Positions 1 to 50,509 of a stretch of DNA of 64,000 bases are shown in pieces (position 1 is the first letter of the stretch; each line of letters opens with the position of its first letter). Source of the DNA: Candidatus Aminicenantes bacterium JdFR-78 (GTDB taxonomy: Bacteria; Acidobacteriota; Aminicenantia; JdFR-78). The position numbers and the translations under genes were made by a program. The stretch is taken from the NCBI GenBank assembly GCA_002010665.1, contig MTON01000024.1:76999-140998 (forward strand). The letters are read 5' to 3'. The notes under the pieces were generated by a model. The model had not been told where the DNA came from. It saw only the letters and a program-made list of their open reading frames with translations, and did no database searches.

Positions 1-180
1 TTTTACCATAGTTGTATAGGTTGTCCCATATTCCATAGATATTTTAAAATCTTTTGGATCAATTTCTTTTCCCATGGCTCTGACATCAATTGCAGTGATT
101 CGAGGTGCTTTTATTTTTTCTAATGCTTTTATAACTTCATCAATCATTATTACTCTTACATAAGCCTTGATTAATTTCAT
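1..180 (-). CDS. P-II (GlnB-like) family small signalling protein; 3' end cut by the window edge
   Basis: Hand translation of the minus strand from ATG 180..178 gives MKLIKAYVRVIMIDEVIKALEKIKAPRITAIDVRAMGKEIDPKDFKISMEYGTTYTTMVK... The N-terminal pattern resembles P-II proteins (MK.IEAI....lD.V..AL). GGAGG lies 9 nt upstream, and the gene starts 5 nt after the stop of the M56 gene. It is absent from the ORF track because it runs off the window. Confidence 0.5.
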   Translation of the reverse strand, partial: MKLIKAYVRVIMIDEVIKALEKIKAPRITAIDVRAMGKEIDPKDFKISMEYGTTYTTMVK

Positions 181-185
181 TAGAT

Positions 186-1106
186 TTAACCTCCAAATTT
201 TGCTGTTTTCTCACAGCAATTATAAAAGTGAGATTTAGACTTGATCACCGAACATTCACAATTACTTGTTTTTGCATAAAATTGGGGTATTAAAAGCATA
301 TTAAAAACAATAATTAAAACAATTAATGTCATTAAAAACTTTTTAATAGGAAATTTAAAAGAAGTTTTCTGCCCATAAATCAATTCCTTTAATCTTGTTT
401 CTAGATTACTGCTATGCTTGAAAGCCCAAATCGTGGAATAAAGATTTTTTTTGCTTTCAGCCACTTTAATTAAGGCACTTGCAAGATGAAGAGGATGAAT
501 AAATGATGAAGCCATTTTATCTGCCTTTCTTTCTTGAATAGAAATTATATAATCTTTTAAGAAACCACTGATGGGTAAAAATAAAAAGAAATCCGAGATA
601 AAATTTATTAAGAATTTTCGTAATGGGTCTCTTTTTTGACAGTGAGAAATTTCATGATAAATGACTGCCTTAAGTTCGTCCTGATCCAATGATTTTATAA
701 GCCCAGTGGATAAATAAATTTTAGGTTTAATCAACCCTGCGGTAAAAGAAAGTTTTATTAAATCATTTTCAAAAATGTTTATTTTATTTATCATCTTGGA
801 AAAAACTGGAGATTCAGAAAGACAAATTTTTATTATTTTTTTATATTTATTTTCATTATTAATTAAATTAAGGCTGTTTATAAATTTTTTCTCTTTGAAA
901 AGATTTTGAAGCTGTTTTAAAAAAGAAAATACAAAAAGGAAACCCAATATTAAAATAAAAATATTTGAGATTGAATTAACAATATTAAAAAGGATATTTT
1001 TACAAAAATAAATTATATGGTGACAATTTTTTATTGTTAAAATCATAGCAAGTATTGTTATAGAAAAGAAAATGATTGAATAAAAAAAGAGCTTAAAAAT
1101 TTTCAT
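186..1106 (-). CDS. BlaR1/MecR1-like M56-family membrane zinc protease without a penicillin-binding sensor domain; Cys-rich C-terminal tail
   Basis: HEISH (HExxH) is encoded at nt 642..656. There are several hydrophobic segments. It overlaps the upstream BlaI-type repressor gene by 4 nt, the classic blaI-blaR1 pairing. The protein ends ...AKTSNCECSVIKSKSHFYNCCEKTAKFGG. At 306 aa it is too short to hold a transpeptidase-like sensor domain. Confidence 0.7.
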   Translation of the reverse strand: MKIFKLFFYSIIFFSITILAMILTIKNCHHIIYFCKNILFNIVNSISNIFILILGFLFVFSFLKQLQNLFKEKKFINSLNLINNENKYKKIIKICLSESPVFSKMINKINIFENDLIKLSFTAGLIKPKIYLSTGLIKSLDQDELKAVIYHEISHCQKRDPLRKFLINFISDFFLFLPISGFLKDYIISIQERKADKMASSFIHPLHLASALIKVAESKKNLYSTIWAFKHSSNLETRLKELIYGQKTSFKFPIKKFLMTLIVLIIVFNMLLIPQFYAKTSNCECSVIKSKSHFYNCCEKTAKFGG

Positions 1107-1531
1107 TTCTTACACAATTCTTTTTTCTTTTTCTCGATAATCGAGGATAATTGCTCTAAGGTTTTAGGGTCATAATCAGATAAAATGTCAATCAGAAACG
1201 CGATGGTAGCACTTTCAGAAAAGTCGAGCACCCCTTTTAATATCCGTTCATAAATGTATTTTGTAAATTCTTCTTTATCTAAAGTTGCACTATAGAGATA
1301 TATTTCGTCTTTCTTTTTTTTATTCACCAATCCTTTCTTAACCATTCTCTGGAGAACTGTTAAGACTGTTGTATATGCAACCTTCTTTTCTTTTGATACT
1401 CTTTCAAAGACCTCTCTTCCTGTGAGTTCTTTTCCTTCCCATAAAACATTGAGAACTTTTTCCTCTAATTCGCCTAAAAATTTTTTTAATCCCCTTTTTT
1501 CTGGTTTAAACGAAAATTTAATTTTTTTCAT
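1103..1531 (-). CDS. BlaI/MecI/CopY-family winged-helix transcriptional repressor
   Basis: LGELEEKVLNVLWEGKELTGREVFERV...YTTVLTVLQRMVKKGLV is typical of the penicillinase-repressor family. The ORF track starts at TTG 1540, but a TATAAT at 1546..1551 sits only 5 nt upstream. ATG 1531 on a leaderless or near-leaderless mRNA is therefore more plausible. The C-terminus has a single Cys and no CopY CxCx4CxC motif. Confidence 0.8.
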   Translation of the reverse strand: MKKIKFSFKPEKRGLKKFLGELEEKVLNVLWEGKELTGREVFERVSKEKKVAYTTVLTVLQRMVKKGLVNKKKKDEIYLYSATLDKEEFTKYIYERILKGVLDFSESATIAFLIDILSDYDPKTLEQLSSIIEKKKKELCKK

Positions 1532-1545
1532 TTTTTTCAACCTTA

Positions 1546-1574
1546 ATTATATTCTACAATATGTAGAATGTCAA
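1546..1574 (-). promoter_or_regulatory. Sigma-70-type promoter of the blaI-blaR1-PII genes, with an operator dyad filling the spacer
   Basis: The minus strand reads TTGACA-TTCTACATATTGTAGAA-TATAAT (17-nt spacer). The spacer is the inverted repeat TTCTACA-N3-TGTAGAA and contains a TACA/TGTA core like BlaI/CopY boxes. The same arrangement recurs at 7624..7652. Confidence 0.65.
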
Positions 1575-1577
1575 TAT

Positions 1578-4500
1578 TTATTTCTTATTTCCTTTATTAA
1601 TTTTCTTTATTTCCCTTCTAAGTTTCCAGCTTTTCCATACAAAATATATAGCTGGAAGCACTAAAAGAGTCAAAATTGTGGAAGAAATCATGCCTCCTAC
1701 CATTGGGGTGGCAATTCTTTTCATAACTTGTGAGCCTGTGCCATGCCCCCAGAATATTGGGAGTAAGCCTCCAATAATAGCACTTACAGTCATTATAATC
1801 GGCCTAACTCGTCGACCAGCACCCTCTATTACTCCTGTTTTTACATCTTCAATACTTCTCAATTCTCCGTGTGTAAGTCTCCTGCGATAGGCTTGGTCTA
1901 AGTATACTAACATTATAACCCCAATTTCCGCTGTTACTCCTGCTAGAGCGATAAAACCTACACCTACTGCAACGCTCATATTGTAGCCAAGAATATACAT
2001 GAACCATATTCCACCAACCAATGAGAAAGGAAGAGTTACCATAACAATTAAACTCTCTGTTATATTTTTAAAATTAAAATAAAGTAATAAGAAAATAATT
2101 ATTAATGTTATTGGAACGACTATTCTTAGACGTTTTTGAGCTCTTTGCATATATTCATATTGACCACTCCAGACTATACTATAGCCGGGAGGGAAGTCTA
2201 TTCTTTCATTAACAATTTTTTGGGCGCGTTTTACATAGGTTCCTACATCTATATCTTTTATATCTATATAGAGCCAGGCTGTTTTACGAGCATTTTCACT
2301 TTTAATCACTGGAGGTCCTTTTCTAATTTTAATTTTCGCAACTTGACCAATTGGAATCTGTGCACCTGTTGGAGTAGGGATAAGGATTCTTTCTAAGTCT
2401 GAGAGAGAATCCCTTAATTCTCTACTGTATCTTAAATTGACTGGATAACGCTCTGAGCCTTCAACTGTATAGGTTATATTCATACCTCCAACTGCAGACA
2501 TGATAACATCCTGCACGTCGCCAACTGTAAGACCGTATCGTGCTGCTTCTTCACGGTCAATTTCAAAATCTAAGTAATTTCCACCAATAGTTTTGTCAGG
2601 AAAAACACTCAAGGTCCCAGGTATTTCTTTAATAACTGCTGCTATTTTCTGAGCTAACTCAGATAAAACTTTTAAATCATCACCCATGAGTTTTATACCC
2701 ACAGGGGTTTTTATCCCTGTTGAGAGCATATCAATCCGAGTTTTTATTGGCATTGTCCATGCATTTGTGAGACCCGGAAACTGAATTGCTCTATCAAGTT
2801 CCTCAATCAGTTTTTCCATGGTCATTCCTGGTCTCCATTTTTCTTTCGGTTTGAGTATAATCGTAGTCTCAATCATTGATAGGGGAGCTGGGTCAGTTGC
2901 AGTCTCAGCACGACCAATTTTGCCAAATACACTTTCAACTTCTGGAAAACTTTTAATGATTTTGTCAGTTTGTTGTAGAAGTTCTTTAGCTTTAGTAATA
3001 CTTATTCCAGGATCAGTAGTGGGCATATAAAGTAAATCACCTTCATTTAAAGGAGGCATAAATTCAGAGCCAATGCGCTTATATGGAAAAAGAGTAATAA
3101 GCAAAATCAGAAGAGCTATTGAAATTGTGGTTTTTCTGAAGCGAAGGACAAAGCGAATTACAGGTTGATAAATTTTCAGAAGAATCCAGTTAATTGGATT
3201 TTTTTGTTCAGGAATAATTTTTCCTCTTATTAAATACCCCATAAGAACAGGCACAATAGTTATAGATAACAATGAGGCGGCTGCCATTGCATAAGTTTTT
3301 GTAAATGCAAGGGGTTTGAATAACCTACCTTCTTGTGCTTGAAGAGTAAAAACCGGCATAAAGGAAACAGTGATTATAAGCAGGGAGAAAAATAATGCCG
3401 GTCCTACTTCTTTTGAGGCTTCAGTAACAATTAGCCAGCGATTCTTTTTTCCTCCTTCGTGTTCTAAATGTTTATGAGTATTTTCTATCATTACAATTGC
3501 TGCATCCACCATTGCTCCAATTGCGATTGCAATTCCTCCAAGAGACATAATATTTGCATTTAGTCCCTGAAAGTACATAATTAAGAACGAAATTAAAATT
3601 CCCATGGGAAGTGTAAAAATTGCAACAAAAGCACTTCGGAAATGTAGAAGGAAAATAATACATACAAGAGCAACAATAATACACTCTTCAATTAATTTAA
3701 CCTTTAAAGTATTTATCGCATTTTTAATCAATTTAGAACGATCATAAGCTGGTTTAATTTTTACTCCTTTTGGGAGTCCCTTTTCAAGTTCTTTTAGTTT
3801 CTTTTTAACATTTTCTATTACCTTTAAGGCATTTTCTCCATAGCGCATTACAATAATTCCACCAACTATTTCACCCTCTCCATTCCATTCAGCAAGTCCT
3901 CTGCGTAGCTCAGGACCTAAATGGATATTTGCAACATTTTTGAGAAGAATTGGAGTTCCTTTTTTATCAACTCCTAATGGTATATTTTCAAGATCTTTGA
4001 TAGATTTAATGTAACCCAAACCGCGAACCATAAATTCTGTTTCGCCCATTTCAATCAGTCTTCCACCCACATCATTGTTACTTCGAAGAATTGCTCTTTT
4101 GACCTTAGAGAGAGGAATTCCATATGCTAAAAGTTTATTTGGATCAACTTCCACCTGGTATTGTTTTACATAGCCTCCGATGCTTGCTACCTCTGCTACA
4201 CCTGGGACACTAGAAAGTTCATATCTAAGGAACCAGTCCTGAATGGAGCGTAACTCTGCAAGGTCATATTTATTCCCTCCATCAAGAACATACTCGTAAA
4301 CCCATCCAACACCAGTAGCATCTGGACCTAAAGTAGGAGTTACTCCTGGAGGAAGACGATTGGCTACATAATTTAGATATTCTAAAACTCTACTTCTAGC
4401 CCAATACAAATCTGTTCCATCCTCGAAAATAATATAAACCATTGAAAAACCAAAGAATGAATAACCACGAACTACCTTTGCATAAGGAACGGCAAGCATT

Positions 4501-4715
4501 GCTGTTGTTAGAGGATATGTAATTTGGTCTTCAACAACCTGGGGAGCTTGACCAGGATATTCTGTGAAAATTATGACCTGGACATCACTGAGATCAGGTA
4601 TAGCATCAATAGGAGTATTCATCATTGCATAAATACCTGCAAGAGCAATAATCACGGTAAATGTAATTATGATAAACCTGTTGTTAACTGAAAACTCTAT
4701 GATTTTCTTAAGCAT
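1578..4715 (-). CDS. cusA: Heavy-metal efflux RND pump, CusA/CzcA family
   Basis: 1045 aa with 12-TM RND architecture. The N-terminus MLKKIIEFSVNNRFIIITFTVII..GIYAMMNTPIDAIPDLSDVQVII is typical of the HME-RND family. It follows an MFP gene and a TolC-like gene. Confidence 0.93.
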   Translation of the reverse strand: MLKKIIEFSVNNRFIIITFTVIIALAGIYAMMNTPIDAIPDLSDVQVIIFTEYPGQAPQVVEDQITYPLTTAMLAVPYAKVVRGYSFFGFSMVYIIFEDGTDLYWARSRVLEYLNYVANRLPPGVTPTLGPDATGVGWVYEYVLDGGNKYDLAELRSIQDWFLRYELSSVPGVAEVASIGGYVKQYQVEVDPNKLLAYGIPLSKVKRAILRSNNDVGGRLIEMGETEFMVRGLGYIKSIKDLENIPLGVDKKGTPILLKNVANIHLGPELRRGLAEWNGEGEIVGGIIVMRYGENALKVIENVKKKLKELEKGLPKGVKIKPAYDRSKLIKNAINTLKVKLIEECIIVALVCIIFLLHFRSAFVAIFTLPMGILISFLIMYFQGLNANIMSLGGIAIAIGAMVDAAIVMIENTHKHLEHEGGKKNRWLIVTEASKEVGPALFFSLLIITVSFMPVFTLQAQEGRLFKPLAFTKTYAMAAASLLSITIVPVLMGYLIRGKIIPEQKNPINWILLKIYQPVIRFVLRFRKTTISIALLILLITLFPYKRIGSEFMPPLNEGDLLYMPTTDPGISITKAKELLQQTDKIIKSFPEVESVFGKIGRAETATDPAPLSMIETTIILKPKEKWRPGMTMEKLIEELDRAIQFPGLTNAWTMPIKTRIDMLSTGIKTPVGIKLMGDDLKVLSELAQKIAAVIKEIPGTLSVFPDKTIGGNYLDFEIDREEAARYGLTVGDVQDVIMSAVGGMNITYTVEGSERYPVNLRYSRELRDSLSDLERILIPTPTGAQIPIGQVAKIKIRKGPPVIKSENARKTAWLYIDIKDIDVGTYVKRAQKIVNERIDFPPGYSIVWSGQYEYMQRAQKRLRIVVPITLIIIFLLLYFNFKNITESLIVMVTLPFSLVGGIWFMYILGYNMSVAVGVGFIALAGVTAEIGVIMLVYLDQAYRRRLTHGELRSIEDVKTGVIEGAGRRVRPIIMTVSAIIGGLLPIFWGHGTGSQVMKRIATPMVGGMISSTILTLLVLPAIYFVWKSWKLRREIKKINKGNKK

Positions 4716-4732
4716 TATAAATTCTCCATTAC

Positions 4733-6271
4733 TTATTTAATTTTTTGTATTTTCTCTTCAATCATTTTTTGAATAGCTTCCTGAATTCTGCTTTCAGAAT
4801 CCAATAAAAATTGAGCAGAAGTTACAATTTCTTCACCTTCTAAAAGACCTTGAATAACTTGAACATAATTATTTTCACCTTCCACTCCCAGTTTGATTTC
4901 TCGAGGTTCAAATTTACCCTCTCCTCTAACAACAAATACTATGTTCCGTTCTCCGGTGCGAATTACAGCATTATCTGGTATTATAAGTGTATTCTTTTTA
5001 ACTGGAGCATGTATGCGAATATTTGCATACATATTTGGTTTAAGTTCAAGATTAGGATTAGGGAAAATTAATCTGACTTTTACATCTCTTGTTTTTTCTT
5101 TTAAAAACGGATAAATATAATCAACTTTTCCTTTAAATATTTTTCCTGGAATATAAGAAAGTTCCATTTCCGCTTCCTGTCCAACCTTAACCCATGGAAG
5201 TTCGTATTCATAAACTGTAACATAAACCCATACAGTTGAAAGGTCTGCAATGTGAAAAAGGTCCATTCCTTCCTTTACAAACATACCTTCTTCTACATTT
5301 TTATGAATTACTATTCCATTGACAGGAGAAAGGAGTTTCATAGTTTTGACAATTGTTCCTCTTTTCTCTAAAGCCTCAATTTCTGATTTTGGAATATCCC
5401 AGAGTTCAAGCCTACGCTTTGTGGATTTTACCAGTGATTCAGCACTTTCTCTTATTTCTTTAAATGGACTTTCTTTTACCAACTCAAAATTTTTTAATGC
5501 TGAAAGATATTCCTCTTGTGTAGAGACAAGTTCAGGAGAATAAATTTCAAGGAGTATGTCTCCTTTTTTTACTTCTTGGCCTTTATAATTTACATATAAT
5601 TTTTCTATCCAGCCTGATATTTTAGTATTTATCCGATAAAGTTTTCTCTCATCGTAATCAATTGTTCCCACTGTTCTAATAATTCTTCTAAGGTCACCTC
5701 TTTTAACTTTTGTTGTTTTAACACCAATATTTTGAACAGTAATAGGGTCAATTGTTATAACTCCACCCCTTCCTAAAACCTGTTCATCTTCATAAACAGG
5801 AATCAAATCCATGCCCATTTTTGATTTGCCTGGATGATCATATATTTCTGTCGGATCCATAGGTGCTCTCCAGTAAAGAATTTTTCTTTTATCTTTAGGT
5901 TTTTTGGCTGGAGTTGTCTTTTTTATTGGAACTAACTTCATTCCGCATTTTGGACAATCACCGGGTTTATCTACTATGACTTCTGGATGCATGGGACATG
6001 TCCATAATTGAATTTCTTGTTTAGGACTCTCTTTTTCTATACCAAAGGTTCTTTTTACTGGGACTAATTTCATTCCACATTTAGGACAATCTCCCGGCTC
6101 TTCCAAAATTACTTCAGGATGCATTGGACAAGTCCATAGCTGAATTTCTTTTTCAGTTTTTTCAACACCTTCAATATTTTTTGATTTGATAAAATAAACA
6201 GCTAATCCTCCAATTATTATCCCAGTTAAAAAAACAGTAAAAATGATTAAAATTGATTTCTTAAAATTCAT
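4733..6271 (-). CDS. cusB: Efflux RND periplasmic adaptor (CusB/MFP) with repeated N-terminal metal-binding modules
   Basis: Barrel-sandwich/lipoyl-type MFP core (…GDILLEIYSPELVSTQEEY…). The N-terminal TM is followed by two copies of QLWTCPMHPEVI..PGDCPKCGMKLVP and a degenerate third copy (YWRAPMDPTEIYDHPGKSKMGMDLIPV). Confidence 0.9.
   Translation of the reverse strand: MNFKKSILIIFTVFLTGIIIGGLAVYFIKSKNIEGVEKTEKEIQLWTCPMHPEVILEEPGDCPKCGMKLVPVKRTFGIEKESPKQEIQLWTCPMHPEVIVDKPGDCPKCGMKLVPIKKTTPAKKPKDKRKILYWRAPMDPTEIYDHPGKSKMGMDLIPVYEDEQVLGRGGVITIDPITVQNIGVKTTKVKRGDLRRIIRTVGTIDYDERKLYRINTKISGWIEKLYVNYKGQEVKKGDILLEIYSPELVSTQEEYLSALKNFELVKESPFKEIRESAESLVKSTKRRLELWDIPKSEIEALEKRGTIVKTMKLLSPVNGIVIHKNVEEGMFVKEGMDLFHIADLSTVWVYVTVYEYELPWVKVGQEAEMELSYIPGKIFKGKVDYIYPFLKEKTRDVKVRLIFPNPNLELKPNMYANIRIHAPVKKNTLIIPDNAVIRTGERNIVFVVRGEGKFEPREIKLGVEGENNYVQVIQGLLEGEEIVTSAQFLLDSESRIQEAIQKMIEEKIQKIK
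5795..6148 (-). repeat. Intragenic tandem duplication encoding CPMHP...CPKCGM metal-binding modules of CusB
   Basis: Residues 42-72 and 86-116 are near-identical at protein level and clearly similar at DNA level, with a period of 44 codons. A third diverged unit covers residues 131-159. Confidence 0.7.
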
Positions 6272-6292
6272 TGTTCATACTCCTTATTATCA

Positions 6293-7582
6293 TTATTCTT
6301 CATTGGTTAGCTGTTTTCCTATAATAGCTTCCAGTTCAGCTAATTTTTTTTCAAAATCTGTTAGAATCCGATAATAATCAATTTCATAATTGAATAATGT
6401 TACCTGATTGTGTAATAATGTAATGAAATCTATTTTGTCTACCTGATATCCTGAAATTGCTGAATTTAAAGACTGCGTGGCTTGAGGAATTATGCCAGTT
6501 TTATATAACTCAATGAGTTCTTCATCTCTTTTTAATTGTTCTAAAATATTTTCGATTTGAAAAAATATCTCATTTTTAAGGCTGTTATATTGTTCCTTAC
6601 TCATAGCAATATTTAACGCAGTCTCTTCAATTTTTTTCTTTTGTTTACGGCTAAAATATAAAGGGATATTAAAAGAAACCATGCCAGAGAAAAAATCGTA
6701 CATTTTCATTCCGGTTTTTAAATCCTCTCTTTGGGTATAAGAGAAACTTAAATTGAAGTTTGGAAAATAGTCCTTTTTAGCTAACTCATAGGCTAATTCA
6801 TACTTTTTGATTATATACTCCCATGCCTTTAATAAAGGGCGATTTTCAAGTGCAATTTGTTTTAGTTTTTCTAAACTCAAATTGAATTTAGATTTTTTTA
6901 TTTCTAGTATTTTTCCTAATGGACTTTCCGGTGGTCTATTTAATAAAGTATTTAATCTTGCCTTAATAGTTTCTCTTTTTTGCTGAAGATTAATTAATTT
7001 TTCTATAAGTTTAGATAGCTCCACCTGTGCTTTTAACACATCCTGCTGAAGCCCTTTTCCTACCGAATATTTAGTTTCAGCAATTTTAACGAATTGTTGC
7101 AACAGTAATTTATTTTTTCTAGTTATCTCTATGGATTTATCAATGAAAAAGAGGTCATAAAAAGTAATTTTAACATTTTTTATTATTGTATTTCTTAGAT
7201 CTTTGTAATTTTGTCCAACAGAGTTGTATTCGCTAAGGGCGATTTTTTCCTTTAATTTTAATTTTCCTGGAAATGGAATCATTTGCATAATAGATAATTT
7301 TTTTCCAGTCATTGGCTCTTGATTAAAATCAAAACTATTTACGGGAAGATTCATAAGACCTAATGAGATTACGGGGTCTGGTAATGCACCTGCTTGTGGT
7401 ATTTTTTCTCTATAAGCTTCCCATTTCTTTCTTGCAGCAATGATTTGAGGATTATTATTTAAAGCTTCATTAATAAGCTCATTAAGATTAAGTATAGATT
7501 CAATATTTCCAAGAGAATTGCCTGCCAGTAGAATGATGAGTATTAATAAACCATATATTTGATTTAATATTTTCTTGTTCAT
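6293..7582 (-). CDS. TolC-family outer-membrane efflux protein (CusC-like)
   Basis: 429 aa with a signal-like N-terminus. It has two coiled-coil/barrel repeats typical of OEP-family proteins and is the first gene of the cusBA operon. Confidence 0.85.
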   Translation of the reverse strand: MNKKILNQIYGLLILIILLAGNSLGNIESILNLNELINEALNNNPQIIAARKKWEAYREKIPQAGALPDPVISLGLMNLPVNSFDFNQEPMTGKKLSIMQMIPFPGKLKLKEKIALSEYNSVGQNYKDLRNTIIKNVKITFYDLFFIDKSIEITRKNKLLLQQFVKIAETKYSVGKGLQQDVLKAQVELSKLIEKLINLQQKRETIKARLNTLLNRPPESPLGKILEIKKSKFNLSLEKLKQIALENRPLLKAWEYIIKKYELAYELAKKDYFPNFNLSFSYTQREDLKTGMKMYDFFSGMVSFNIPLYFSRKQKKKIEETALNIAMSKEQYNSLKNEIFFQIENILEQLKRDEELIELYKTGIIPQATQSLNSAISGYQVDKIDFITLLHNQVTLFNYEIDYYRILTDFEKKLAELEAIIGKQLTNEE

Positions 7583-7623
7583 TTCAACCTTCCTTAAATT
7601 TATTCATCTAATTTAAGAGAAGA

Positions 7624-7652
7624 ATTCTATACTACATATTGTAGAATGTCAA
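7624..7652 (-). promoter_or_regulatory. Sigma-70-type promoter of tolC-cusB-cusA, with the same operator dyad in the spacer
   Basis: The minus strand reads TTGACA-TTCTACAATATGTAGTA-TAGAAT (17-nt spacer). The dyad is CTACA-N3-TGTAG. It is nearly identical to the 1546..1574 promoter, and AAGGAAGG lies upstream of the tolC ATG. Confidence 0.65.
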
Positions 7653-7690
7653 GATTTTTTATAAAAAATGTAAAAAATATTTTATTAATT

Positions 7691-7720
7691 AAAAATTATT
7701 CTTAATTAAAAATAATTCTT
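7691..7720. promoter_or_regulatory. Candidate Fur/PerR box overlapping the -35 of the fur-family gene promoter
   Basis: The AT-rich 13-mer AAAAAT(T/A)ATTCTT occurs twice (7691..7703 and 7708..7720). There is also a 7-bp inverted repeat AATTATT/AATAATT (7694..7700 and 7711..7717). It is not a clean 7-1-7 Fur box. Confidence 0.3.
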
Positions 7721-7747
7721 GACAAAAAGAAATTTTTGATTTATATT
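7719..7747 (+). promoter_or_regulatory. Sigma-70-type promoter of the oxidative-stress operon
   Basis: TTGACA (7719..7724), a 17-nt spacer, then TATATT (7742..7747). It lies 18 nt upstream of ATG 7765. Confidence 0.5.
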
Positions 7748-7764
7748 TGGTATTGTATATTGTA

Positions 7765-8181
7765 ATGAAAGATAAAAATACAGTTATAGAAAGGTTAAAA
7801 AAAGCAAATTTTAAATTAACCCCACAAAGAATGGCTATAATTGAAACTTTAATAGGTAATAAAACTCATCCTTCTGCAGATGCCATTTATGATAAAATTA
7901 AAAAAAAGTTTCCTATGATATCATATTCTACTATTTATAATACCCTTCGCATTTTAATTGATTTAGGTGAACTCAGAGAATTGTCAATAAAGGAAAATAA
8001 AATTAATTATGATCCGAATACAGAGCCACATCATCATTTTCTTTGTGAAAAATGCAATAGAATAATTGATATTTTTCAGGAAATAAATTTCAAATCAGAG
8101 CATATTAATACACATAAAATTAGAAATTATGAAATTTATTTTTATGGAATTTGTTCTGATTGTTTAAAAAGAATCAAATAA
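7765..8181 (+). CDS. Fur-family metalloregulator (PerR-like by context)
   Basis: RLKKANFKLTPQRMAIIETL...HPSADAIYDKI...STIYNTLRIL, plus HHHFLCEKC...CSDC metal sites. The ORF-track start 7747 lies inside the -10 box, so ATG 7765 is preferred. Confidence 0.85.
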   Translation: MKDKNTVIERLKKANFKLTPQRMAIIETLIGNKTHPSADAIYDKIKKKFPMISYSTIYNTLRILIDLGELRELSIKENKINYDPNTEPHHHFLCEKCNRIIDIFQEINFKSEHINTHKIRNYEIYFYGICSDCLKRIK

Positions 8182-8255
8182 AAAAGGAATAAAGTAATGA
8201 AAAAAGCATTAGCGAAGATGGAGTCAGAACAATTAAAGACGCATTAGAGTTTAAG

Positions 8256-8747
8256 ATGAATAGTAAAGAATTTTTTAAACGAACTGAAGAACTTACTGAA
8301 AATAAGCTTGGAAAGAAAATGTTTTGTAGATTTGTGAATGATAGAATTAGATGTTTTTCTTTCTTTAGGGAGTTATTTACTATTATCTTTGTTAATGATC
8401 TAAAGGCAAAAGAAATTTTCGAGAGACTTTTTCAAAATAAATTTCCTGGAAGAAAAATTAAATTATTTAATGAAATTCCTATTCCCCTGCCTAGAATCGA
8501 AATTGAGAATGAGAGTGAACCTATAAGCAAGATTCTTGCTCGGGCTATAGAGGCAGAGAAGACAACATATGATTTCTATATTTCTCTTTCCATGAGGTTT
8601 GAACAAGATATTAATATAAAAAAGATGCTCATATATATAGCGGAAATGGAAAAAGGACACTACAGATTGGTCGAAATTGAAAAAGAAAATGCAGAAAAAT
8701 TTGAAGCTTATAATATAGAATGGCCAATGATGCATATTGGCCCTTAA
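8256..8747 (+). CDS. Ferritin-like/rubrerythrin-domain protein; the N-terminus may be disrupted by a frameshift
   Basis: The C-terminal half has the diiron-helix pattern AIEAEKTTYDFY...IAEMEKGHYRLVE. The in-frame upstream sequence (SISEDGVRTIKDALEFK) continues the domain but has no start codon. An ATG at 8197 is out of frame by one base. Confidence 0.6.
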   Translation: MNSKEFFKRTEELTENKLGKKMFCRFVNDRIRCFSFFRELFTIIFVNDLKAKEIFERLFQNKFPGRKIKLFNEIPIPLPRIEIENESEPISKILARAIEAEKTTYDFYISLSMRFEQDINIKKMLIYIAEMEKGHYRLVEIEKENAEKFEAYNIEWPMMHIGP

Positions 8748-8767
8748 GCTACATAAGGAGGTAAAGC

Positions 8768-8959
8768 ATGAAAAATGTGGGCAAAGTGGATTCTGCAATA
8801 AGAATTGTATTGGGGATTGTTATTATTATAATTGGAATCTATTTCAAAAGCTGGTGGGGGGCAATAGGCTTGATACCATTGATAACTGGAATAGTAGGTT
8901 GGTGCCCTTTGTATGTTCCTTTTAAAATATCGACAATAAAAACGAGAAAAGGAGGGTAA
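8768..8959 (+). CDS. DUF2892 (YgaP-like) small membrane protein
   Basis: MKNVGKVDSAIRIVLGIVIIIIGIY...IGLIPLITGIVGWCPLY matches the DUF2892 signature (NvG..DR.iRi..G...G.CPlY). AAGGAGG lies upstream. Confidence 0.8.
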   Translation: MKNVGKVDSAIRIVLGIVIIIIGIYFKSWWGAIGLIPLITGIVGWCPLYVPFKISTIKTRKGG

Positions 8960-8962
8960 AAA

Positions 8963-9265
8963 ATGCCAGATTTTGGAACACCATTTTCTGGATTAAAAAA
9001 TGAGCGAAATCTTAGTCATGAGGAACTTGTTAGAGCTATACGTTTTCTCATTTCAGCAGAATATGAAGCTATTCAATTATATATGCAACTTGCTGAGTCA
9101 ACCAATAACGAGCTTGCAAGGGAAGTATTAAATGATATAGCTGATGAAGAAAGAATTCATGCTGGTGAATTTCTCAGACTTTTAAAAGAGCTTTCCCCTA
9201 ATGAAGAAAAATTTTATGAAGAGGGAGCAAAAGAAGTAGAAGAGATTATTGAAAAATTGAAATAG
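8963..9265 (+). CDS. Small (100 aa) ferritin-like protein of the EncFtn/rubrerythrin-like type
   Basis: AEYEAIQLYMQLAES....VLNDIADEERIHAGEF gives an E..E..Y plus EExxH half-diiron site, as in encapsulated-ferritin-like proteins. The C-terminus (EVEEIIEKLK) has no recognisable encapsulin targeting peptide. Confidence 0.65.
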   Translation: MPDFGTPFSGLKNERNLSHEELVRAIRFLISAEYEAIQLYMQLAESTNNELAREVLNDIADEERIHAGEFLRLLKELSPNEEKFYEEGAKEVEEIIEKLK

Positions 9266-9276
9266 AAATTAATAAA

Positions 9277-10017
9277 ATGAAAAAGATTAAATGGCAGATC
9301 GTATTAGGGGTATTTTTAGTTTCACTTTCAGCAGTTCTTTATTTAATTCATTATAGTATATTCAGAGATCCTCATCATATATTCATTTATATGCTAGGTG
9401 ATATAGCTTTTGTCCCAATTGAAGTGCTTTTTGTTACTCTAATTATTCATAAGGTGATTAGTGAAAGGGAAAAACATGTTATGATGGAAAAGTTAAACAT
9501 GGTTATAGGAACCTTTTTCAGTGAAGTTGGAACAAAATTACTGAAGTATTTTAGCAAATTTGATCAGAATTTTGAAGAAATGAGAAATAGACTGATTGTT
9601 GAAAATGATTGGTCCGAGAAGGATTTTCTGAAAATAAAAAAACTGATTTTCGATTTTAATTATAGTATTGATAGTGGAAAAGGAAATTTAGAAGAGTTAA
9701 AAAAGTTTCTCATTGAGAAATGGAATTTTTTACTTCGTTTATTAGAAAATCCGAATTTACTTGAACACGAATCATTTACTGAACTTCTCTGGGCTGTTTT
9801 TCACTTGGCAGGAGAACTTGCTAATAGAGATAATGTCCAGAAGTTATCTGAAACAGATTATGAACATCTTTCAAATGATATAAAAAGAGCATATATTTTA
9901 CTGATTTCACAATGGCTTGATTATATGAAACATCTAAAAAATCGCTATCCTTATCTTTTTTCGCTTGCAATAAGAATTAATCCCTTTAAAAAGGAAGCGA
10001 GTGCAGAGATTAAATGA
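9277..10017 (+). CDS. Hypothetical membrane protein: two N-terminal TM helices plus a helical cytoplasmic domain
   Basis: A long ORF 12 nt after the previous gene, with hydrophobic segments VLGVFLVSLSAVLYLI and IAFVPIEVLFVTLII. I recognise no family. Confidence 0.55.
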   Translation: MKKIKWQIVLGVFLVSLSAVLYLIHYSIFRDPHHIFIYMLGDIAFVPIEVLFVTLIIHKVISEREKHVMMEKLNMVIGTFFSEVGTKLLKYFSKFDQNFEEMRNRLIVENDWSEKDFLKIKKLIFDFNYSIDSGKGNLEELKKFLIEKWNFLLRLLENPNLLEHESFTELLWAVFHLAGELANRDNVQKLSETDYEHLSNDIKRAYILLISQWLDYMKHLKNRYPYLFSLAIRINPFKKEASAEIK

Positions 10018-10036
10018 TATATGAGGAGGAGAGAAA

Positions 10037-10738
10037 ATGGATTTAAAAATTCTTTACAAAATAAGTTATGGTCTATATGTGGTTACTTCAAAGAAAAACG
10101 ATAAAATCAATGGACAGATTGCAAATACAGTGTTTCAGGTTGCATCAGAACCTCCTACTATTGCAGTCAGTATAAATAAGAACAATCTTACTCATGAATT
10201 TATTCAAAATAGTGGAATTTTTGCTGTTTCTGTTCTTTCAAAAGATACTCCTATGAAATTGATAGGGAATTTTGGTTTTAAATCCGGAAGAGAAATAGAT
10301 AAGTTTAAAGAAGTGAAATATAAAACTGGGGCTACAGGAGCTCCTATTATATTGGAGAGTACACTTGGTTATCTGGAAACAGAAACCATAAACAATTTGG
10401 ATGTTGGAACCCACACAATTTTTATTGGAAAAATTTTGAATGCTGAAATAATTGGTGAAGGAGAACCAATGACCTATGCTTATTACCATCAGGTTAAAAA
10501 AGGAAGAGCTCCGAAATCAGCCCCTACCTATATGAAAGAGATTAATCATGAAAACTTGAATATGGGAGGGAATAGAATGGCGAAATATGAATGCACAATA
10601 TGTGGATATATTTATGATCCTGAAAAGGGTGATCCTGATTCTGGAATTGATCCGGGCACTTCTTTTGAAGAGCTTCCAGATGATTGGGTTTGTCCTGTTT
10701 GTGGTGCATGGAAATCAGCTTTTAAACAAATAGATTAG
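10037..10738 (+). CDS. Flavin reductase-like domain fused to a C-terminal rubredoxin (high-molecular-weight rubredoxin, Hrb-like)
   Basis: The N-terminal part is an FMN-binding split-barrel (YGLYVVTS....[16 protein letters not shown]). The C-terminal part is [12 protein letters not shown]....DDWVCPVCG, a rubredoxin. GAGGAGGAG lies upstream. Confidence 0.85.
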
Positions 10739-10758: not shown

Positions 10759-11943
10759 ATGACAGTTCAAAAAATTAAAGATAATGTATATTTTGTAGGT
10801 GCAATTCATTGGGATAGAAGACTGTTTGATGAACTTATACCTCTACCTGATGGAACAACCTATAATAGTTATCTTATTAAAGGTTCGAAAAAGACTGCTT
10901 TAATCGATGCTGCTGACCCGGCAAAGGAAAATGAGTTATTATCAAATCTCAGGAATTTAGGAGTTAAGAAGCTAGATTATTTAATTTCGAATCATGCAGA
11001 GCAAGATCATTCAGGAGTAATCTCAAGAATTGTTGAGCTTTATCCTGAAACAAAGATCGTGACTAATGAAAAATGTAAAGATTTTTTAAGAGAACTTTTA
11101 CTAATACCAGAAGATAAGTTCTATATAATAAAGGATGGTGACGAGCTTTCTCTGGGTAATAAAACTCTAAAATTTATTTTTACTCCATGGGTTCATTGGC
11201 CTGAAACAATGGTAACCTATTTGATTGAGGATAGAATTTTATTCAGTTGTGATTTCTTTGGTTCTCATTATGCAACCTCATCTATATTTGCTAAAGAAGG
11301 AGAGAAATTACTTGAAGATGCAAAGAGATATTATGCGGAAATAATGATGCCTTTTAGAAAAACAATTGTAAAGAATATTGAAAAAATTTCAGTATTGGAT
11401 ATTGATATTATAGCTCCAAGTCATGGCCCTCTATATAAAAATCCTTCTTTTATAATAAATGCATATAAGGAATGGATAAGTGATGATGTTAAAAATGAGG
11501 TTCTCATTCCATATGTTTCAATGCATGGTAGTACAGAGAGAATGGTAGAATATTTTATTGATTTACTTGTAAATAAAGGGATTGAAGTTAAACCTTTTAA
11601 TCTATCCAAAACAGATATAGGAGAGCTTGCTATGGCTCTTGTTGATGCTGCAACCATTGTAATAGCTTCTCCAATGGTTCTTGCAGGAGCGCATCCTGCT
11701 GCTGTTTATGCAGCCTTCCTCGTGAATGCTTTGAGACCAAAGACGAGGTTTTTGTCAATTATAGGTTCTTATGGATGGGGTGGAAAATTTGTTGAACAGT
11801 TAAAAAGTCTGTTAAGTAATCTTAATGCAGAATTTATCGAACCTGTGATAGTAAAAGGTTATCCAAAGGAAAAAGATTTTAAAGCTCTGGAAAATTTAGC
11901 TGATAAAATTTTAGAAAAGCATAAACAATTAAAAATAGTTTAG
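10759..11943 (+). CDS. fprA: Flavodiiron protein (FprA; rubredoxin:O2/NO oxidoreductase)
   Basis: Metallo-beta-lactamase-like domain with the HAEQDHSG diiron motif, followed by a C-terminal flavodoxin-like domain. It sits immediately downstream of the Hrb-like gene. Confidence 0.9.
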   Translation: MTVQKIKDNVYFVGAIHWDRRLFDELIPLPDGTTYNSYLIKGSKKTALIDAADPAKENELLSNLRNLGVKKLDYLISNHAEQDHSGVISRIVELYPETKIVTNEKCKDFLRELLLIPEDKFYIIKDGDELSLGNKTLKFIFTPWVHWPETMVTYLIEDRILFSCDFFGSHYATSSIFAKEGEKLLEDAKRYYAEIMMPFRKTIVKNIEKISVLDIDIIAPSHGPLYKNPSFIINAYKEWISDDVKNEVLIPYVSMHGSTERMVEYFIDLLVNKGIEVKPFNLSKTDIGELAMALVDAATIVIASPMVLAGAHPAAVYAAFLVNALRPKTRFLSIIGSYGWGGKFVEQLKSLLSNLNAEFIEPVIVKGYPKEKDFKALENLADKILEKHKQLKIV

Positions 11944-12476: not shown

Positions 12477-13715
12477 ATGAGTCTTATTGAAATGAATAAA
12501 AAATACCTTCGCAGTGCAGCTGATAAGATAAATTTAGATCCTAATCTTCTGAAGATTTTGGAAAGACCAATGAGGGTTCTTGAAGTTTCTATACCGCTCG
12601 TAAAGGATAATGGTGAAGTCGAGGTATTCACAGGTTATCGATGTCAATATAATGATGCAAGGGGCCCCACAAAAGGAGGGGTAAGATATCATCCTAATGT
12701 TACAAAAGATGAAATAATAACACTTGCAGCATTAATGACTTGGAAATGTGCTCTTGTGGATCTTCCATATGGAGGGGCAAAAGGTGGTATAATTTGCGAT
12801 CCAACAAAATTATCTGAAAAAGAGTTGGAAAGACTTACAAGAAGATATACTGTAGAAATCATACATCTTTTAGGCCCTCATATAGACATCCCAGCTCCTG
12901 ATGTATTTACAACTTCTAAAAACATGGCTTGGATAATGGATACATTTAGTATGATGAAAGGCTATACAGAACCAAGCATTGTAACGGGAAAACCAGAAGT
13001 TCTTGGAGGTTCAAAGGGTAGAAAAGAAGCAACTGGTAGAGGTGTAGCAATTGTTACAAGAGAATTATTTAAAGCATTAAATAAGAATCTTAGGGGAGCA
13101 AAAGTAGCTGTTCAGGGATTTGGGAATGTTGGAAGTCATGCAGCACTATTTCTCTCTCAAATGGGCGCTAAAATAGTTGCAGTTTCTGATATTACAGGTG
13201 CTTTAGTAAATGAAGATGGTTTTTCAGCTCAAGAATTGATAGGATGTGTGGAGAAATACGGCTGTTTGGAAGGTTATAATAAAGGAAAGAAAATTCCACG
13301 AGATGAATTGCTTTATTTGGATGTTGATGTTTTAATTCCGGCTGCATTGGAGAATCAGATTCATTCAGAAAATGCAGGGAAAATAAAAGCTAAAATAATA
13401 ATTGAAGGAGCAAATGCTCCTACTACGCCTGAAGCTAATGAATTATTGAGTAAAAAAGGAATTTATGTTGTTCCTGATATTCTTGCAAATTCAGGAGGAG
13501 TTATTGTGAGCCATCTTGAATGGGTTCAAGCATTAAGTGGATTATACTGGGAAGAAGAGGAAGTAATTAAGCACTTGGAAAAGAAACTTGTAAAAAGTTT
13601 CAAAGAGGTATGGAAAAAATCAAAGGAATTTAATGTATCTCTTAGAGAAGCATCTTATATAGTAGCACTTCAAAGAATTGCTGAAGTTTATCATTATAGA
13701 GGTATTTTTCCGTAG
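12477..13715 (+). CDS. gdhA: Glutamate dehydrogenase
   Basis: TKGGVRYHP, YGGAKGG and GFGNVG are the Glu/Leu/Phe/Val dehydrogenase signatures. Confidence 0.93.
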   Translation: MSLIEMNKKYLRSAADKINLDPNLLKILERPMRVLEVSIPLVKDNGEVEVFTGYRCQYNDARGPTKGGVRYHPNVTKDEIITLAALMTWKCALVDLPYGGAKGGIICDPTKLSEKELERLTRRYTVEIIHLLGPHIDIPAPDVFTTSKNMAWIMDTFSMMKGYTEPSIVTGKPEVLGGSKGRKEATGRGVAIVTRELFKALNKNLRGAKVAVQGFGNVGSHAALFLSQMGAKIVAVSDITGALVNEDGFSAQELIGCVEKYGCLEGYNKGKKIPRDELLYLDVDVLIPAALENQIHSENAGKIKAKIIIEGANAPTTPEANELLSKKGIYVVPDILANSGGVIVSHLEWVQALSGLYWEEEEVIKHLEKKLVKSFKEVWKKSKEFNVSLREASYIVALQRIAEVYHYRGIFP

Positions 13716-21239: not shown

Positions 21240-21935
21240 TTAATTTCTAATTCTCTCCCTTTTTCCCTTATTCATAATTTTTTTTAATTCAAAAATTGTA
21301 TTCTCTAATTGTTCAATTTTTTCCTCCAATTTTTCCTGTTCTCTCATAACAAATTTCAAAGCATCAGAGATCGGGTCAGGAAGCTTTCCGTGTTCAAGTG
21401 CTTTGATTTCCTCTATGCTCAGGCCAAGCCCTATTCTTCCCGGAACTCCAACAACAATTGAATTTGAGGGGACATCTTTTACTACAACTGAACCTGCACC
21501 TATTTTGACATTATCTCCTATTTTCACAGGACCTAGAACTATCGCTCCAGCTCCGATCACAACATTATTTCCAATAGTAGGATGTCTTTTCCCTTTTTCA
21601 AGGGAAGTTCCACCAAGGACTGCACCTTGATACATTAGAACATCATCTCCAATTTCTGTGGTTTCTCCTATTACAATTCCCATTCCATGGTCTATAAAAA
21701 ATCTCCTACCAATTTTAGCTCCGGGATGGATTTCCACTCCTGTAATGAAACGATTAATGTGAGAGATAATTCTTGCGATCAATTTTAATTTATTTTTCCA
21801 AAAGAAATGAGCAATCCTATGAAGCCAGACTGCATGAAGTCCTGGATAACACAAAATTATTTCTAGAGTATTTCTTGCTGCAGGGTCTTTTTTAAATACA
21901 GTTTGTATATCTTCTTTTAATGTTTTAAAAATCAT
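21240..21935 (-). CDS. cysE: Serine O-acetyltransferase
   Basis: DPAARN...[12 protein letters not shown]-domain followed by left-handed beta-helix hexapeptide repeats ([28 protein letters not shown]...). Confidence 0.9.
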
Positions 21936-50435: not shown

Positions 50436-50509
50436 TGGCTGGGAAGCAGGGACTCGAACCCCGATTCTGCGGTCCAGAGCCGCATGTCCTACCATTGGAC
50501 GACTTCCCA
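50436..50509 (-). tRNA. tRNA-Gln (anticodon CUG), CCA encoded
   Basis: Hand fold of the minus strand: TGGGAAG-TC-GTCC-AATGGTA-GGAC-A-TGCGG-CTCTGGA-CCGCA-GAAT-CGGGG-TTCGAGT-CCCTG-CTTCCCA-G-CCA. The cloverleaf is 74 nt with a GTTCGAGT T-loop. The layout parallels E. coli tRNA-Gln. Confidence 0.9.

Follow-up and report, generated by a model that had tools for sequence, protein, structure and literature searches.

The window analysed here, a 64-kb stretch of contig MTON01000024.1 from Candidatus Aminicenantes bacterium JdFR-78, opens with the greater part of an eight-gene Cu(I)/Ag(I) resistance operon. Its genes encode an outer-membrane factor (OEP), a CusB-like adaptor, a CusA-type permease of the resistance-nodulation-division (RND) class, a BlaI-family repressor, an M56 membrane protease, a P-II-like protein, a Cys-rich membrane protein and a YHS/HMBD protein. 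We think it rather probable that this operon is controlled by a metal-triggered switch of the PetR/PetP-like, atypical BlaI/BlaR1 kind. In the absence of metal, a dimer of the BlaI-family protein would occupy the dyad TTCTACA-N3-TGTAGAA at two promoters, P1 and P2, and block RNA polymerase. Periplasmic Cu(I)/Ag(I) would then bind thiolate/imidazole ligands of the M56 protein in a C-x6-C segment and a Cys-rich tail, and the metal-bound form would switch on its cytoplasmic HExxH...ExxxD zinc protease, which would cut the dimerisation helix of the repressor near a conserved x-F-[V/L]-D motif. P1 and P2 would be freed, the pump would remove the periplasmic metal, and fresh repressor made from the same transcript would restore the off state. 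This picture starts from what was observed, namely the genes present, the class of the pump, the places of the operators, the linkage across lineages and the conserved residues; from there we infer metal binding by the M56 protein, its topology, the proteolysis of the repressor and the signal metal, drawing for binding, topology and cleavage on BlaR1/BlaI and PetP/PetR as analogues. An earlier note on this DNA had proposed metal-triggered proteolytic derepression of an RND pump with a P-II-like protein as an extra module. The operators, the linkage, the conserved promoter cassette and the co-variation of ligands with pump class speak for the core of that proposal, while the P-II module has to be taken out of it.

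The exact dyad CTACAnnnTGTAG occurs only twice in the 64 kb, at 1554-1566 and 7632-7644, so that the two dyads named in the earlier note do exist. Each copy lies, as TTCTACA-N3-TGTAG, inside the 17-nt spacer between the -35 and -10 elements of a promoter, and these two promoters were the best two minus-strand sigma-70 matches in a promoter scan of positions 1-8300 (P2, 12/12; P1, 11/12). Their elements are nearly identical (Table 1), and the same TACA-N3-TGTA geometry is found at the pump promoter P1 and at the repressor's own promoter P2. An operator within the -35/-10 spacer is the classic layout for repression by occlusion. Because the dyad fills this spacer in both P1 and P2, it is very probable that the pump genes and the repressor gene itself are under the control of the repressor. 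A cassette of TTGACA/TTGCAT, (A)TTCTAC-N5-GTAGAA(T) and TAnAAT, with variable central bases, was present 5' of the repressor gene across phyla (Aminicenantia, Brocadiaceae, Nitrospirae, Poribacteria, Thermodesulfobacteriota and the delta loci from metagenome-assembled genomes [MAGs]), and a second operator copy precedes OEP in three relatives (L005, L007 and L008). P2 is a putative promoter, predicted from consensus and conservation only.

The classical CopY/BlaI box with a spacing of N2, TACAnnTGTA, had zero matches in the region, the actual dyad being spaced N3. Further TACA-N3-TGTA matches at 21897 and 55368 were rejected as operators, as they lie inside coding sequence and have neither the flanking CT/AG nor promoter hexamers. 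Additionally, a Brocadiaceae MAG (L028) carries three operator copies, at 2939, 4786 and 9053, which precede genes for a Cache/HD-domain protein and a beta-propeller protein and the repressor gene, respectively; this suggests a larger regulon in anammox bacteria. A similar beta-propeller gene follows the repressor-M56 pair in L058 and L059.

The open reading frame (ORF) listing and Pfam profile searches found six co-oriented minus-strand genes where the earlier note had placed them (Table 1). They are as tightly packed as it had said, with intergenic spacers along the operon of 21, 17, 46 and 5 nt and a 4-nt overlap between the repressor stop and the M56 start. If the repressor started at the alternative TTG at 1540, it would have 145 aa and the cusA-repressor spacer would shrink to 37 nt. 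Penicillinase_R, Peptidase_M56 and P-II, the last in its full-length form from L001, all scored above the Pfam cut-offs. The six genes are thus real, but the operon is longer than six genes, as it leaves the window at the window start. On L001, an 84-kb metagenome contig, it continues with the remainder of the P-II gene (complete at 10927-11265, 112 aa) and two further metal genes. One encodes a membrane-anchored protein of 118 aa that contains CACGSCG...CNC and matches CcmH weakly (PCYCGC-like). The product of the other has 184 aa and combines a signal-peptide-like N-terminus with a YHS domain, an HMBD and a stretch rich in Met; mnmA comes next after the YHS/HMBD gene. Rfam gave no RNA element at the locus, its single match in the window being a tRNA at 50439-50509.

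Table 1. Genes and promoters of the operon in the window, and Czc-type cassettes found on plasmids
Feature	Sequence	Position	Strand	Match or elements
OEP: outer-membrane factor (TolC/CusC-like), 429 aa, first gene of the operon	window	6293..7582	-	Pfam OEP 7.6e-52, two stretches
CusB-like periplasmic adaptor, 512 aa	window	4733..6271	-	Pfam HlyD_D23 4e-83; HMBD 8.5e-34, three stretches
CusA-type heavy-metal efflux (HME) RND permease, 1045 aa, Cu(I)/Ag(I) class	window	1578..4715	-	Pfam ACR_tran 9e-247
BlaI/MecI/CopY-family (PetR-like) winged-helix repressor, 142 aa from ATG at 1531	window	1103..1531	-	Penicillinase_R 2e-24
Sensor-less M56 (BlaR1-type) membrane zinc protease, 306 aa	window	186..1106	-	Peptidase_M56 1.2e-14
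P-II-like gene, first 60 codons of 112 aa, rest cut by window edge	window	1..180	-	Pfam P-II
Promoter P1, 5' of OEP gene	window	7624..7652	-	-35 TTGACA 7652-7647; operator TTCTACAATATGTAGTA 7646-7630; -10 TAGAAT 7629-7624
Internal promoter P2, cusA-repressor spacer	window	1546..1574	-	-35 TTGACA 1574-1569; operator TTCTACATATTGTAGAA 1568-1552; -10 TATAAT 1551-1546
Czc-type cassette (L060)	Shewanella sp. ANA-3 plasmid NC_008573.1	269236-276307		
Czc-type cassette (L062)	Salmonella enterica IncC plasmid NZ_CP100354.1	46842-53913		
Czc-type cassette (L061)	Glaciecola pGLAAG01			

The pump is of the Cu(I)/Ag(I) type, judging from its match to CusA, its three Met residues, its motif in transmembrane segment 4 (TM4) and its HMBD, YHS and Met-rich accessory proteins. 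The permease scored 1270 bits with TIGR00914, the CusA/CzcA family model (cut-off, 701), and 1295 bits against E. coli CusA versus 590 bits against the Zn pump ZneA. All three positions aligned to CusA M573, M623 and M672 are Met (LLYMPT, PLSMIET and RIDMLST). The TM4 motif is AIGAMVDAAIVMIEN, of the A-x5-D-x6-E and not the D-x5-D-x6-E type, which we take to be the monovalent-cation type; the assignment of TM4 motif types to metal classes reportedly goes back to Nies in 2003. Of the HMBD repeats in the N-terminal extension of the adaptor, two are full (WTCPMHPEV...PGDCPKCGM) and one is degenerate. Its best NCBIfam match was CusB at 245.8 bits, below the cut-off of 390, which makes it an adaptor of the CusB type and not an equivalog. 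No CusF-like gene for a periplasmic chaperone was present in the operon, including its L001 part, which encodes the secreted YHS, HMBD and Met-rich protein instead.

The M56 protein matched PF05569 at 54.7 bits (cut-off, 31), and both the M48 and the M56 Pfam families match the protease. Its zinc-protease residues are HEISH at 151-155, E192 and D196, and H151, E152, H155, E192 and D196 were invariant in 154 M56 sequences. An AlphaFold model built on a 50-sequence alignment reached a predicted local distance difference test (pLDDT) score of 87, and a run on a 6-sequence alignment (pLDDT 64.7) was discarded. The best fold matches of the model were the cryo-EM structures of S. aureus BlaR1, 8EXP/8EXR, with a probability of 1.0. 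Since HExxH, E192 and D196 are invariant and the fold matches BlaR1, the protease is probably active. The earlier note had described this protein as lacking a penicillin-binding domain and carrying a Cys-rich tail, and both features were found: the protein ends 28 residues past its last hydrophobic segment and scored 28 bits with blaR1_generic against a cut-off of 400, and the tail after that segment (279-306) is AKTSNCECSVIKSKSHFYNCCEKTAKFGG. A pair of cysteines, C28-x6-C35, lies just before the last N-terminal hydrophobic segment. Among 50 cluster representatives of the family, C28 and C298 were invariant and C35 nearly so, with the consensus C-x6-C plus C-x3-HC...C-x2-HC, and 120 of the 154 sequences had at least two Cys within the last 40 residues. 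Brocadiaceae-type M56 proteins have a Cys cluster instead of C-x6-C at the N-terminus. These short M56 proteins form a large family, with 118 clusters below 1e-30 and 6058 below 1e-10 in an exhaustive profile search; word-indexed homologue searches returned only 6 matches for M56 and 11 for the repressor, so that the profile search was needed to size the family. Loop L2 and the C-terminus of BlaR1 are extracellular, and by analogy with L2 and the BlaR1 sensor domain, the C-x6-C segment and the tail of the window protein would face the periplasm. Because the repressor has no conserved metal ligand of its own, the M56 protein is probably the metal sensor.

A protein search of plasmids revealed a second cassette in the order BlaI-family gene, M56, TolC, adaptor, CusA/CzcA-family pump and HupE (HupE/UreJ). 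It was carried by cultured Gammaproteobacteria, namely on six Shewanella plasmids including that of ANA-3, on a Salmonella enterica IncC plasmid, and in Glaciecola and Pseudoalteromonas (Table 1), and most of the plasmids are conjugative. The cassette occurred on 8 plasmids and in 0 of 5,426 complete E. coli genomes. Its operator, AAACCGAT-N6-ATCGGTTT, differs from that of the window. Its pumps are of the divalent-cation type, with the TM4 motif DFGLLVDGAIIIVEN (DFG...DGA...VEN) and H, V and E at the three CusA Met positions, and its M56 protein has HWHH in the TM2-TM3 loop, a tail of the form ...HH..E....TH and 0-1 Cys, so that its putative ligands are His only. These His-type M56 proteins are long enough for a BlaR1-like layout, and their ligand-bearing loop corresponds to L2. 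Every Cus-type pump with readable sequence (A/S-IG...D...EN), on the other hand, was paired with an M56 tail of 3-5 Cys, and the three-Met site in the Cus-type pumps was complete except in L022, where 2/3 were Met. Soft ligands thus accompany the soft-metal pump and His the divalent-cation pump, as expected if the M56 protein is the sensor. A broader generalization, which we offer tentatively as plausible though somewhat short of an even chance, is that sensor-less M56 proteins may be widespread modular membrane metal sensors whose loop and tail ligands are tuned to the pump, with Cys/His for Cus, His for Czc and, in PetP, Met.

Relatives of the locus were gathered by contig look-ups of close homologues, by a one-genome-per-species scan that yielded 46 loci, and by tblastn of the operon proteins. 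In 12 of these 46 species-level loci, the repressor-M56 pair was followed directly by OEP(-CusB-CusA). These 12 belong to Aminicenantia, two Thermodesulfobacteriota, four 'Deltaproteobacteria' MAGs, four Brocadiaceae and one Planctomycetota. Three metagenome loci (L008, L056 and L057) have the order repressor-M56-OEP-cusB-cusA, and the pair comes after cusA both in the window and in L005, which is closely related to it. Altogether, the pair was linked to the pump in at least 15 other loci from several phyla and in two gene orders, and the fact that the linkage is kept despite the different gene order argues for function. A merely coincidental adjacency of the M56, BlaI and HME-RND genes, named in the earlier note as a refuting outcome, is not borne out by these loci. 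Among the metagenome loci, L056 adjoins COX1-3 and SCO1, and L057 adjoins DsbD, FixS and a copper ATPase. Of the named relatives, an Aminicenantia MAG is the nearest, with 50% identity in M56 and 84% in P-II.

Two side observations concern the make-up of such loci. In L007 (Aminicenantia), cusB and cusA are separated by a 91-aa ORF (13402-13677) that has no Pfam match and possibly encodes a small periplasmic metal-binding protein. A Priestia megaterium plasmid (L063, NZ_CP069608.1, 116202-117460) has a BlaI-family/M56 pair in a Gram-positive metal-resistance island, together with ars genes and with genes for CopZ, a P-type ATPase, YdhK and a four-helix-bundle copper-binding protein; sensor-less M56 pairs may therefore be linked to metal genes other than those of RND pumps.

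Several findings weigh against a metal-sensing protease switch at this locus. The topology of the 65-aa N-terminal region of the M56 protein is ambiguous by hydropathy and positive-inside counts, with either two or three helices, and C28/C35 could lie inside the membrane and not on its periplasmic side. The tail, with its four Cys, has a pLDDT below 50 in the model. Transcription from P2 would leave a leader of about 8 nt before the repressor ATG. The co-variation of ligand and pump rests on about ten Cus-type lineages and only two diverged Czc-type cassettes. Finally, about half of the closest relatives have no RND pump in the sequenced flank and carry cytochrome c biogenesis, thioredoxin, peroxiredoxin or beta-propeller genes instead.

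Two such pump-free loci combine the pair with the same operator. In L012 (Nitrospiria, 5179-10592), they are found near genes for a PCYCGC protein, a TPR protein, a thioredoxin-like protein and ResB/CcsA, and in L019 (Poribacteria, 8547-10714) near a YHS-peroxiredoxin fusion. As these neighbors are of the redox type, the sensed signal could be thiol or redox damage. The M56 cysteines, whose conserved pairs have the capacity for a redox switch, would then respond to periplasmic thiol, redox or envelope damage (disulfide, oxidants, sulfide or electrophiles), and the pump would be one output of a thiol-stress response; the weak CcmH/PCYCGC-like protein encoded in the window operon would be in keeping with this. 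We consider such a response unlikely to be the main signal path, since the pump-linked outputs are dedicated Cu/Ag export and metal-binding proteins, and the Czc-linked M56 protein has His in place of Cys, as would suit the coordination of metal but not the sensing of redox state. Moreover, copper damages periplasmic thiols and cytochrome c maturation, and for this reason the neighbors in Nitrospirae and Poribacteria also fit copper sensing.

It is also conceivable, though improbable in our judgment, that copper is first bound in the periplasm by one of two accessory proteins, the secreted YHS/HMBD/Met-rich one or the small Cys-rich one in the membrane, and that this partner then activates M56. 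Both accessory genes are co-transcribed with the pair and conserved in L005 and L007, and YHS or PCYCGC genes recur beside the pair in other lineages. However, many loci with pair and pump (L008, L022 and L057) have neither accessory gene in the sequenced flank, and the Cys motifs of M56 are conserved far more widely than the accessory proteins.

The properties of the repressor bear on whether it could sense the metal itself. It covers 114/115 positions of the PF03965 (Penicillinase_R) profile at 86.5 bits (cut-off, 22.6), its best NCBIfam match is CopY_TcrY (TIGR02698), and its best solved relative is M. tuberculosis 2G9W. A motif [S/H/A]-F-[V/L]-D is conserved in the repressor alignment where BlaI and MecI are cut; of the BlaI, MecI and CopY reference sequences in that alignment, the C-terminal part of MecI alone was corroborated, by the search that gave 2G9W. 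The earlier note had remarked on the missing CopY site and on a single C-terminal Cys in a protein ending KELCKK. Both statements hold for the window, although this lone Cys is not conserved in orthologues. A CopY-like repressor that senses metal, with M56 only clearing the released repressor or acting as a housekeeping protease, would draw on the CopY/TcrY match and on that Cys, and appears very improbable. The match reached 51.6 bits, far under the CopY cut-off of 121.95, the sequence has neither CxCx4CxC nor CxC, the Cys is missing from orthologues with 70% and 62% identity, and the repressor alignment has no conserved Cys or His column. The translationally coupled, obligatory M56 protein with its invariant catalytic residues argues in addition for a signaling role of the protease. 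That the pair lies beside cusCBA by chance and regulates something else, to which the pump-free flanks of about half of the closest relatives might point, is effectively refuted by the operator in the pump promoter as well as the pair's own and by the recurrent linkage described above.

The P-II gene belongs with the pump. Full-length, it matched Pfam PF00543 at 69.3 bits (cut-off, 25), its 60 window codons alone giving 21 bits, and A. aeolicus P-II (2EG1) matched the window protein at 77 bits. With the GlnB and GlnK equivalog models, whose cut-offs are 181 and 202, it reached only about 63 bits. K58 and K90 are the canonical ligand-binding lysines of P-II. In 6/6 pump-linked P-II proteins (window/L001, L005, L007, L015, L020 and L056) K58 is replaced by M, I or F and K90 by I, A or M; given these replacements and the low equivalog scores, the ligand is probably other than the canonical ATP/2-oxoglutarate pair. 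All six proteins keep an RxRTGE C-terminus, and together with the replacements this looks like a subfamily signature. In the window, the P-II gene lies two genes after cusA, behind the repressor-M56 pair. In L007, L015, L020 and L056, whose pump genes are preceded by the pair, the P-II gene comes directly 3' of cusA, and it was not found at the pair-plus-pump loci L008, L022, L025, L029, L030 and L057. Because its linkage follows cusA, it belongs with the permease and not with the regulator pair, and we rejected it as a sensor component. Speculatively, its partner might be the pump, in the way that AmtB is bound by GlnK.

P-II proteins beside HME-RND pumps already go by the name PII-NG (PMC7726332, citing Sant'Anna 2009). 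PII-NG, for example Geobacter GSU2134, resembles the window protein by gene context, as a P-II-fold protein encoded beside an HME-RND permease gene. It is described as mainly proteobacterial and Czc-linked, whereas the window P-II is Cus-linked and comes from an uncultured low-GC lineage. The claim that P-II is an extra module of the circuit therefore falls: the gene travels with cusA, is missing from six loci that have pair and pump, and represents an association that had already been described.

Outside the operon, no CusRS-type pair is present next to it. To the surroundings described in the earlier note are to be added a Fur-family gene (7747-8181, plus strand), which adjoins the pump operon divergently and scores PerR-like, and a histidine kinase 1.3 kb beyond the operon end. 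The PerR-like gene leads a rubrerythrin/flavodiiron cluster reaching to about 11943, with genes for rubrerythrins, a flavin reductase-rubredoxin fusion and a flavodiiron protein, and this cluster looks like the oxidative-stress cluster of an anaerobe. The region 5' of the Fur-family gene, 7660-7746, holds a tandem repeat AAGAAT(T/A)ATTTTTAATTA. As it leads an oxidative-stress cluster, the Fur-family gene was judged unlikely to be the regulator of the operon. The kinase, a 1247-aa HAMP-HisKA-HATPase protein encoded at 13477-17220 of L001 and without an adjoining response regulator, was likewise judged unlikely, since mnmA intervenes and its position after mnmA is syntenic only in the closest relative (L005) and not in L007.

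Cus and Czc pumps are textbook cases of two-component or extracytoplasmic function (ECF) sigma control. If sensor-less M56 proteins are a class of metal sensors tuned to their pumps, as in the broader generalization above, they would add a third major mode to these two in the control of HME-RND pumps, one at work in Aminicenantia, Desulfobacterota-type lineages and anammox bacteria and also on Shewanella and Salmonella plasmids that are conjugative. A proteolytic switch would also add input logic, as the response would be irreversible and thresholded and would be reset by resynthesis of the repressor. The apparent replacement of Cys by His ligands from one pump class to the other points to a specificity code that is simple and could be engineered for metal biosensors. 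The proposal lends itself to direct tests, because Shewanella that are in culture and genetically tractable carry the same architecture on conjugative plasmids, and its occurrence on these and on a Salmonella IncC plasmid makes it relevant to metal/antimicrobial co-selection.

In our literature search, no report was found in which a Cus or Czc pump is under the control of a BlaI/M56 pair, and BlaR, PetP and protease were not among the words of the first half of a 2024 Chem Rev metallostasis review. The view that no such circuit had been characterized therefore appears to hold for metal efflux pumps but not more generally, as PetR/PetP is a copper-triggered BlaI/M56 switch. Compared with the established regulators of tripartite metal pumps, the locus shares with CusRS/CzcRS and with the ECF sigma system CnrYXH the path from periplasmic sensing, as proposed for the window, to transcription of the pump. 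Those systems work by phosphorelay or anti-sigma release, and the window system would work by irreversible proteolysis of a repressor. CopY/TcrY of Firmicutes resembles the window repressor in family, in control of copper export and in its TACA...TGTA operator. It differs in that CopY binds Cu(I)/Zn(II) through a C-terminal CxCx4CxC, a site that the window repressor lacks, acts without a protease and controls P-type ATPases.

BlaI/BlaR1 and MecI/MecR1 of Staphylococcus and Bacillus have in common with the window pair the Penicillinase_R and Peptidase_M56 families, the HExxH...ExxxD residues and the BlaR1-like fold, as well as the Phe retained at the cut site and an autoregulated operon with a palindromic TACA/TGTA operator. 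However, BlaR1 has 585 aa with a sensor domain, whereas the window M56 protein has 306 aa without one and leaves the first ~100 M56 profile positions unmatched. Additionally, the operator half-sites of BlaI/MecI are spaced N2 and those of the window N3, and the outputs of BlaR1/MecR1 are beta-lactamase or PBP2a, in contrast to metal efflux genes. As the defining features of both systems were looked for and were not found, the locus is neither BlaR1 sensu stricto nor CopY. Atypical sensor-less BlaI/BlaR pairs with unknown signals have been described as M. tuberculosis Rv1846c/Rv1845c, in M. abscessus and as P. aeruginosa PvmSR (bioRxiv 10.64898/2026.08.03.742534). They resemble the window pair in an M56 protein without a sensor domain and, through M. 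tuberculosis 2G9W, in the closest solved repressor, but their regulons are not metal efflux. A metal-responsive window pair would supply a concrete signal for these systems.

The closest parallel is found in Synechocystis sp. PCC 6803, in which PetP, an M48/M56 protease with no sensor domain, degrades the BlaI-family protein PetR in a copper-dependent manner (García-Cañas et al.; bioRxiv 10.1101/2020.07.31.226407; commentary, PMC7896320). PetRP controls only petE, petJ and two small genes, as a plastocyanin/cytochrome c6 switch, and has no copper-homeostasis output according to a 2023 review (PMC10141476). As in the window, a BlaI/CopY-family regulator without the CopY Cys site is paired with an M48/M56 protease without a penicillin-binding domain, and the two genes overlap and are co-transcribed. 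Both operators are 4-3-4 dyads, GACA-N3-TGTC for PetR and TACA-N3-TGTA for the window. The copper signal has been shown for PetRP and would probably apply to the window pair. The proposed ligands of PetP, which was compared by description, are two Met in the TM2-TM3 loop, where the window M56 protein has C28-x6-C35 in addition to its Cys-rich tail. PetR also activates a gene, whereas both window sites are in repressor positions, and the targets petE and petJ are replaced in the window by a Cu/Ag RND pump and metal-binding proteins, with no petE or petJ. Overall, from these likenesses and differences, the description that appears to fit the locus best is that of a PetRP-like switch whose set of ligands differs and whose output is new.

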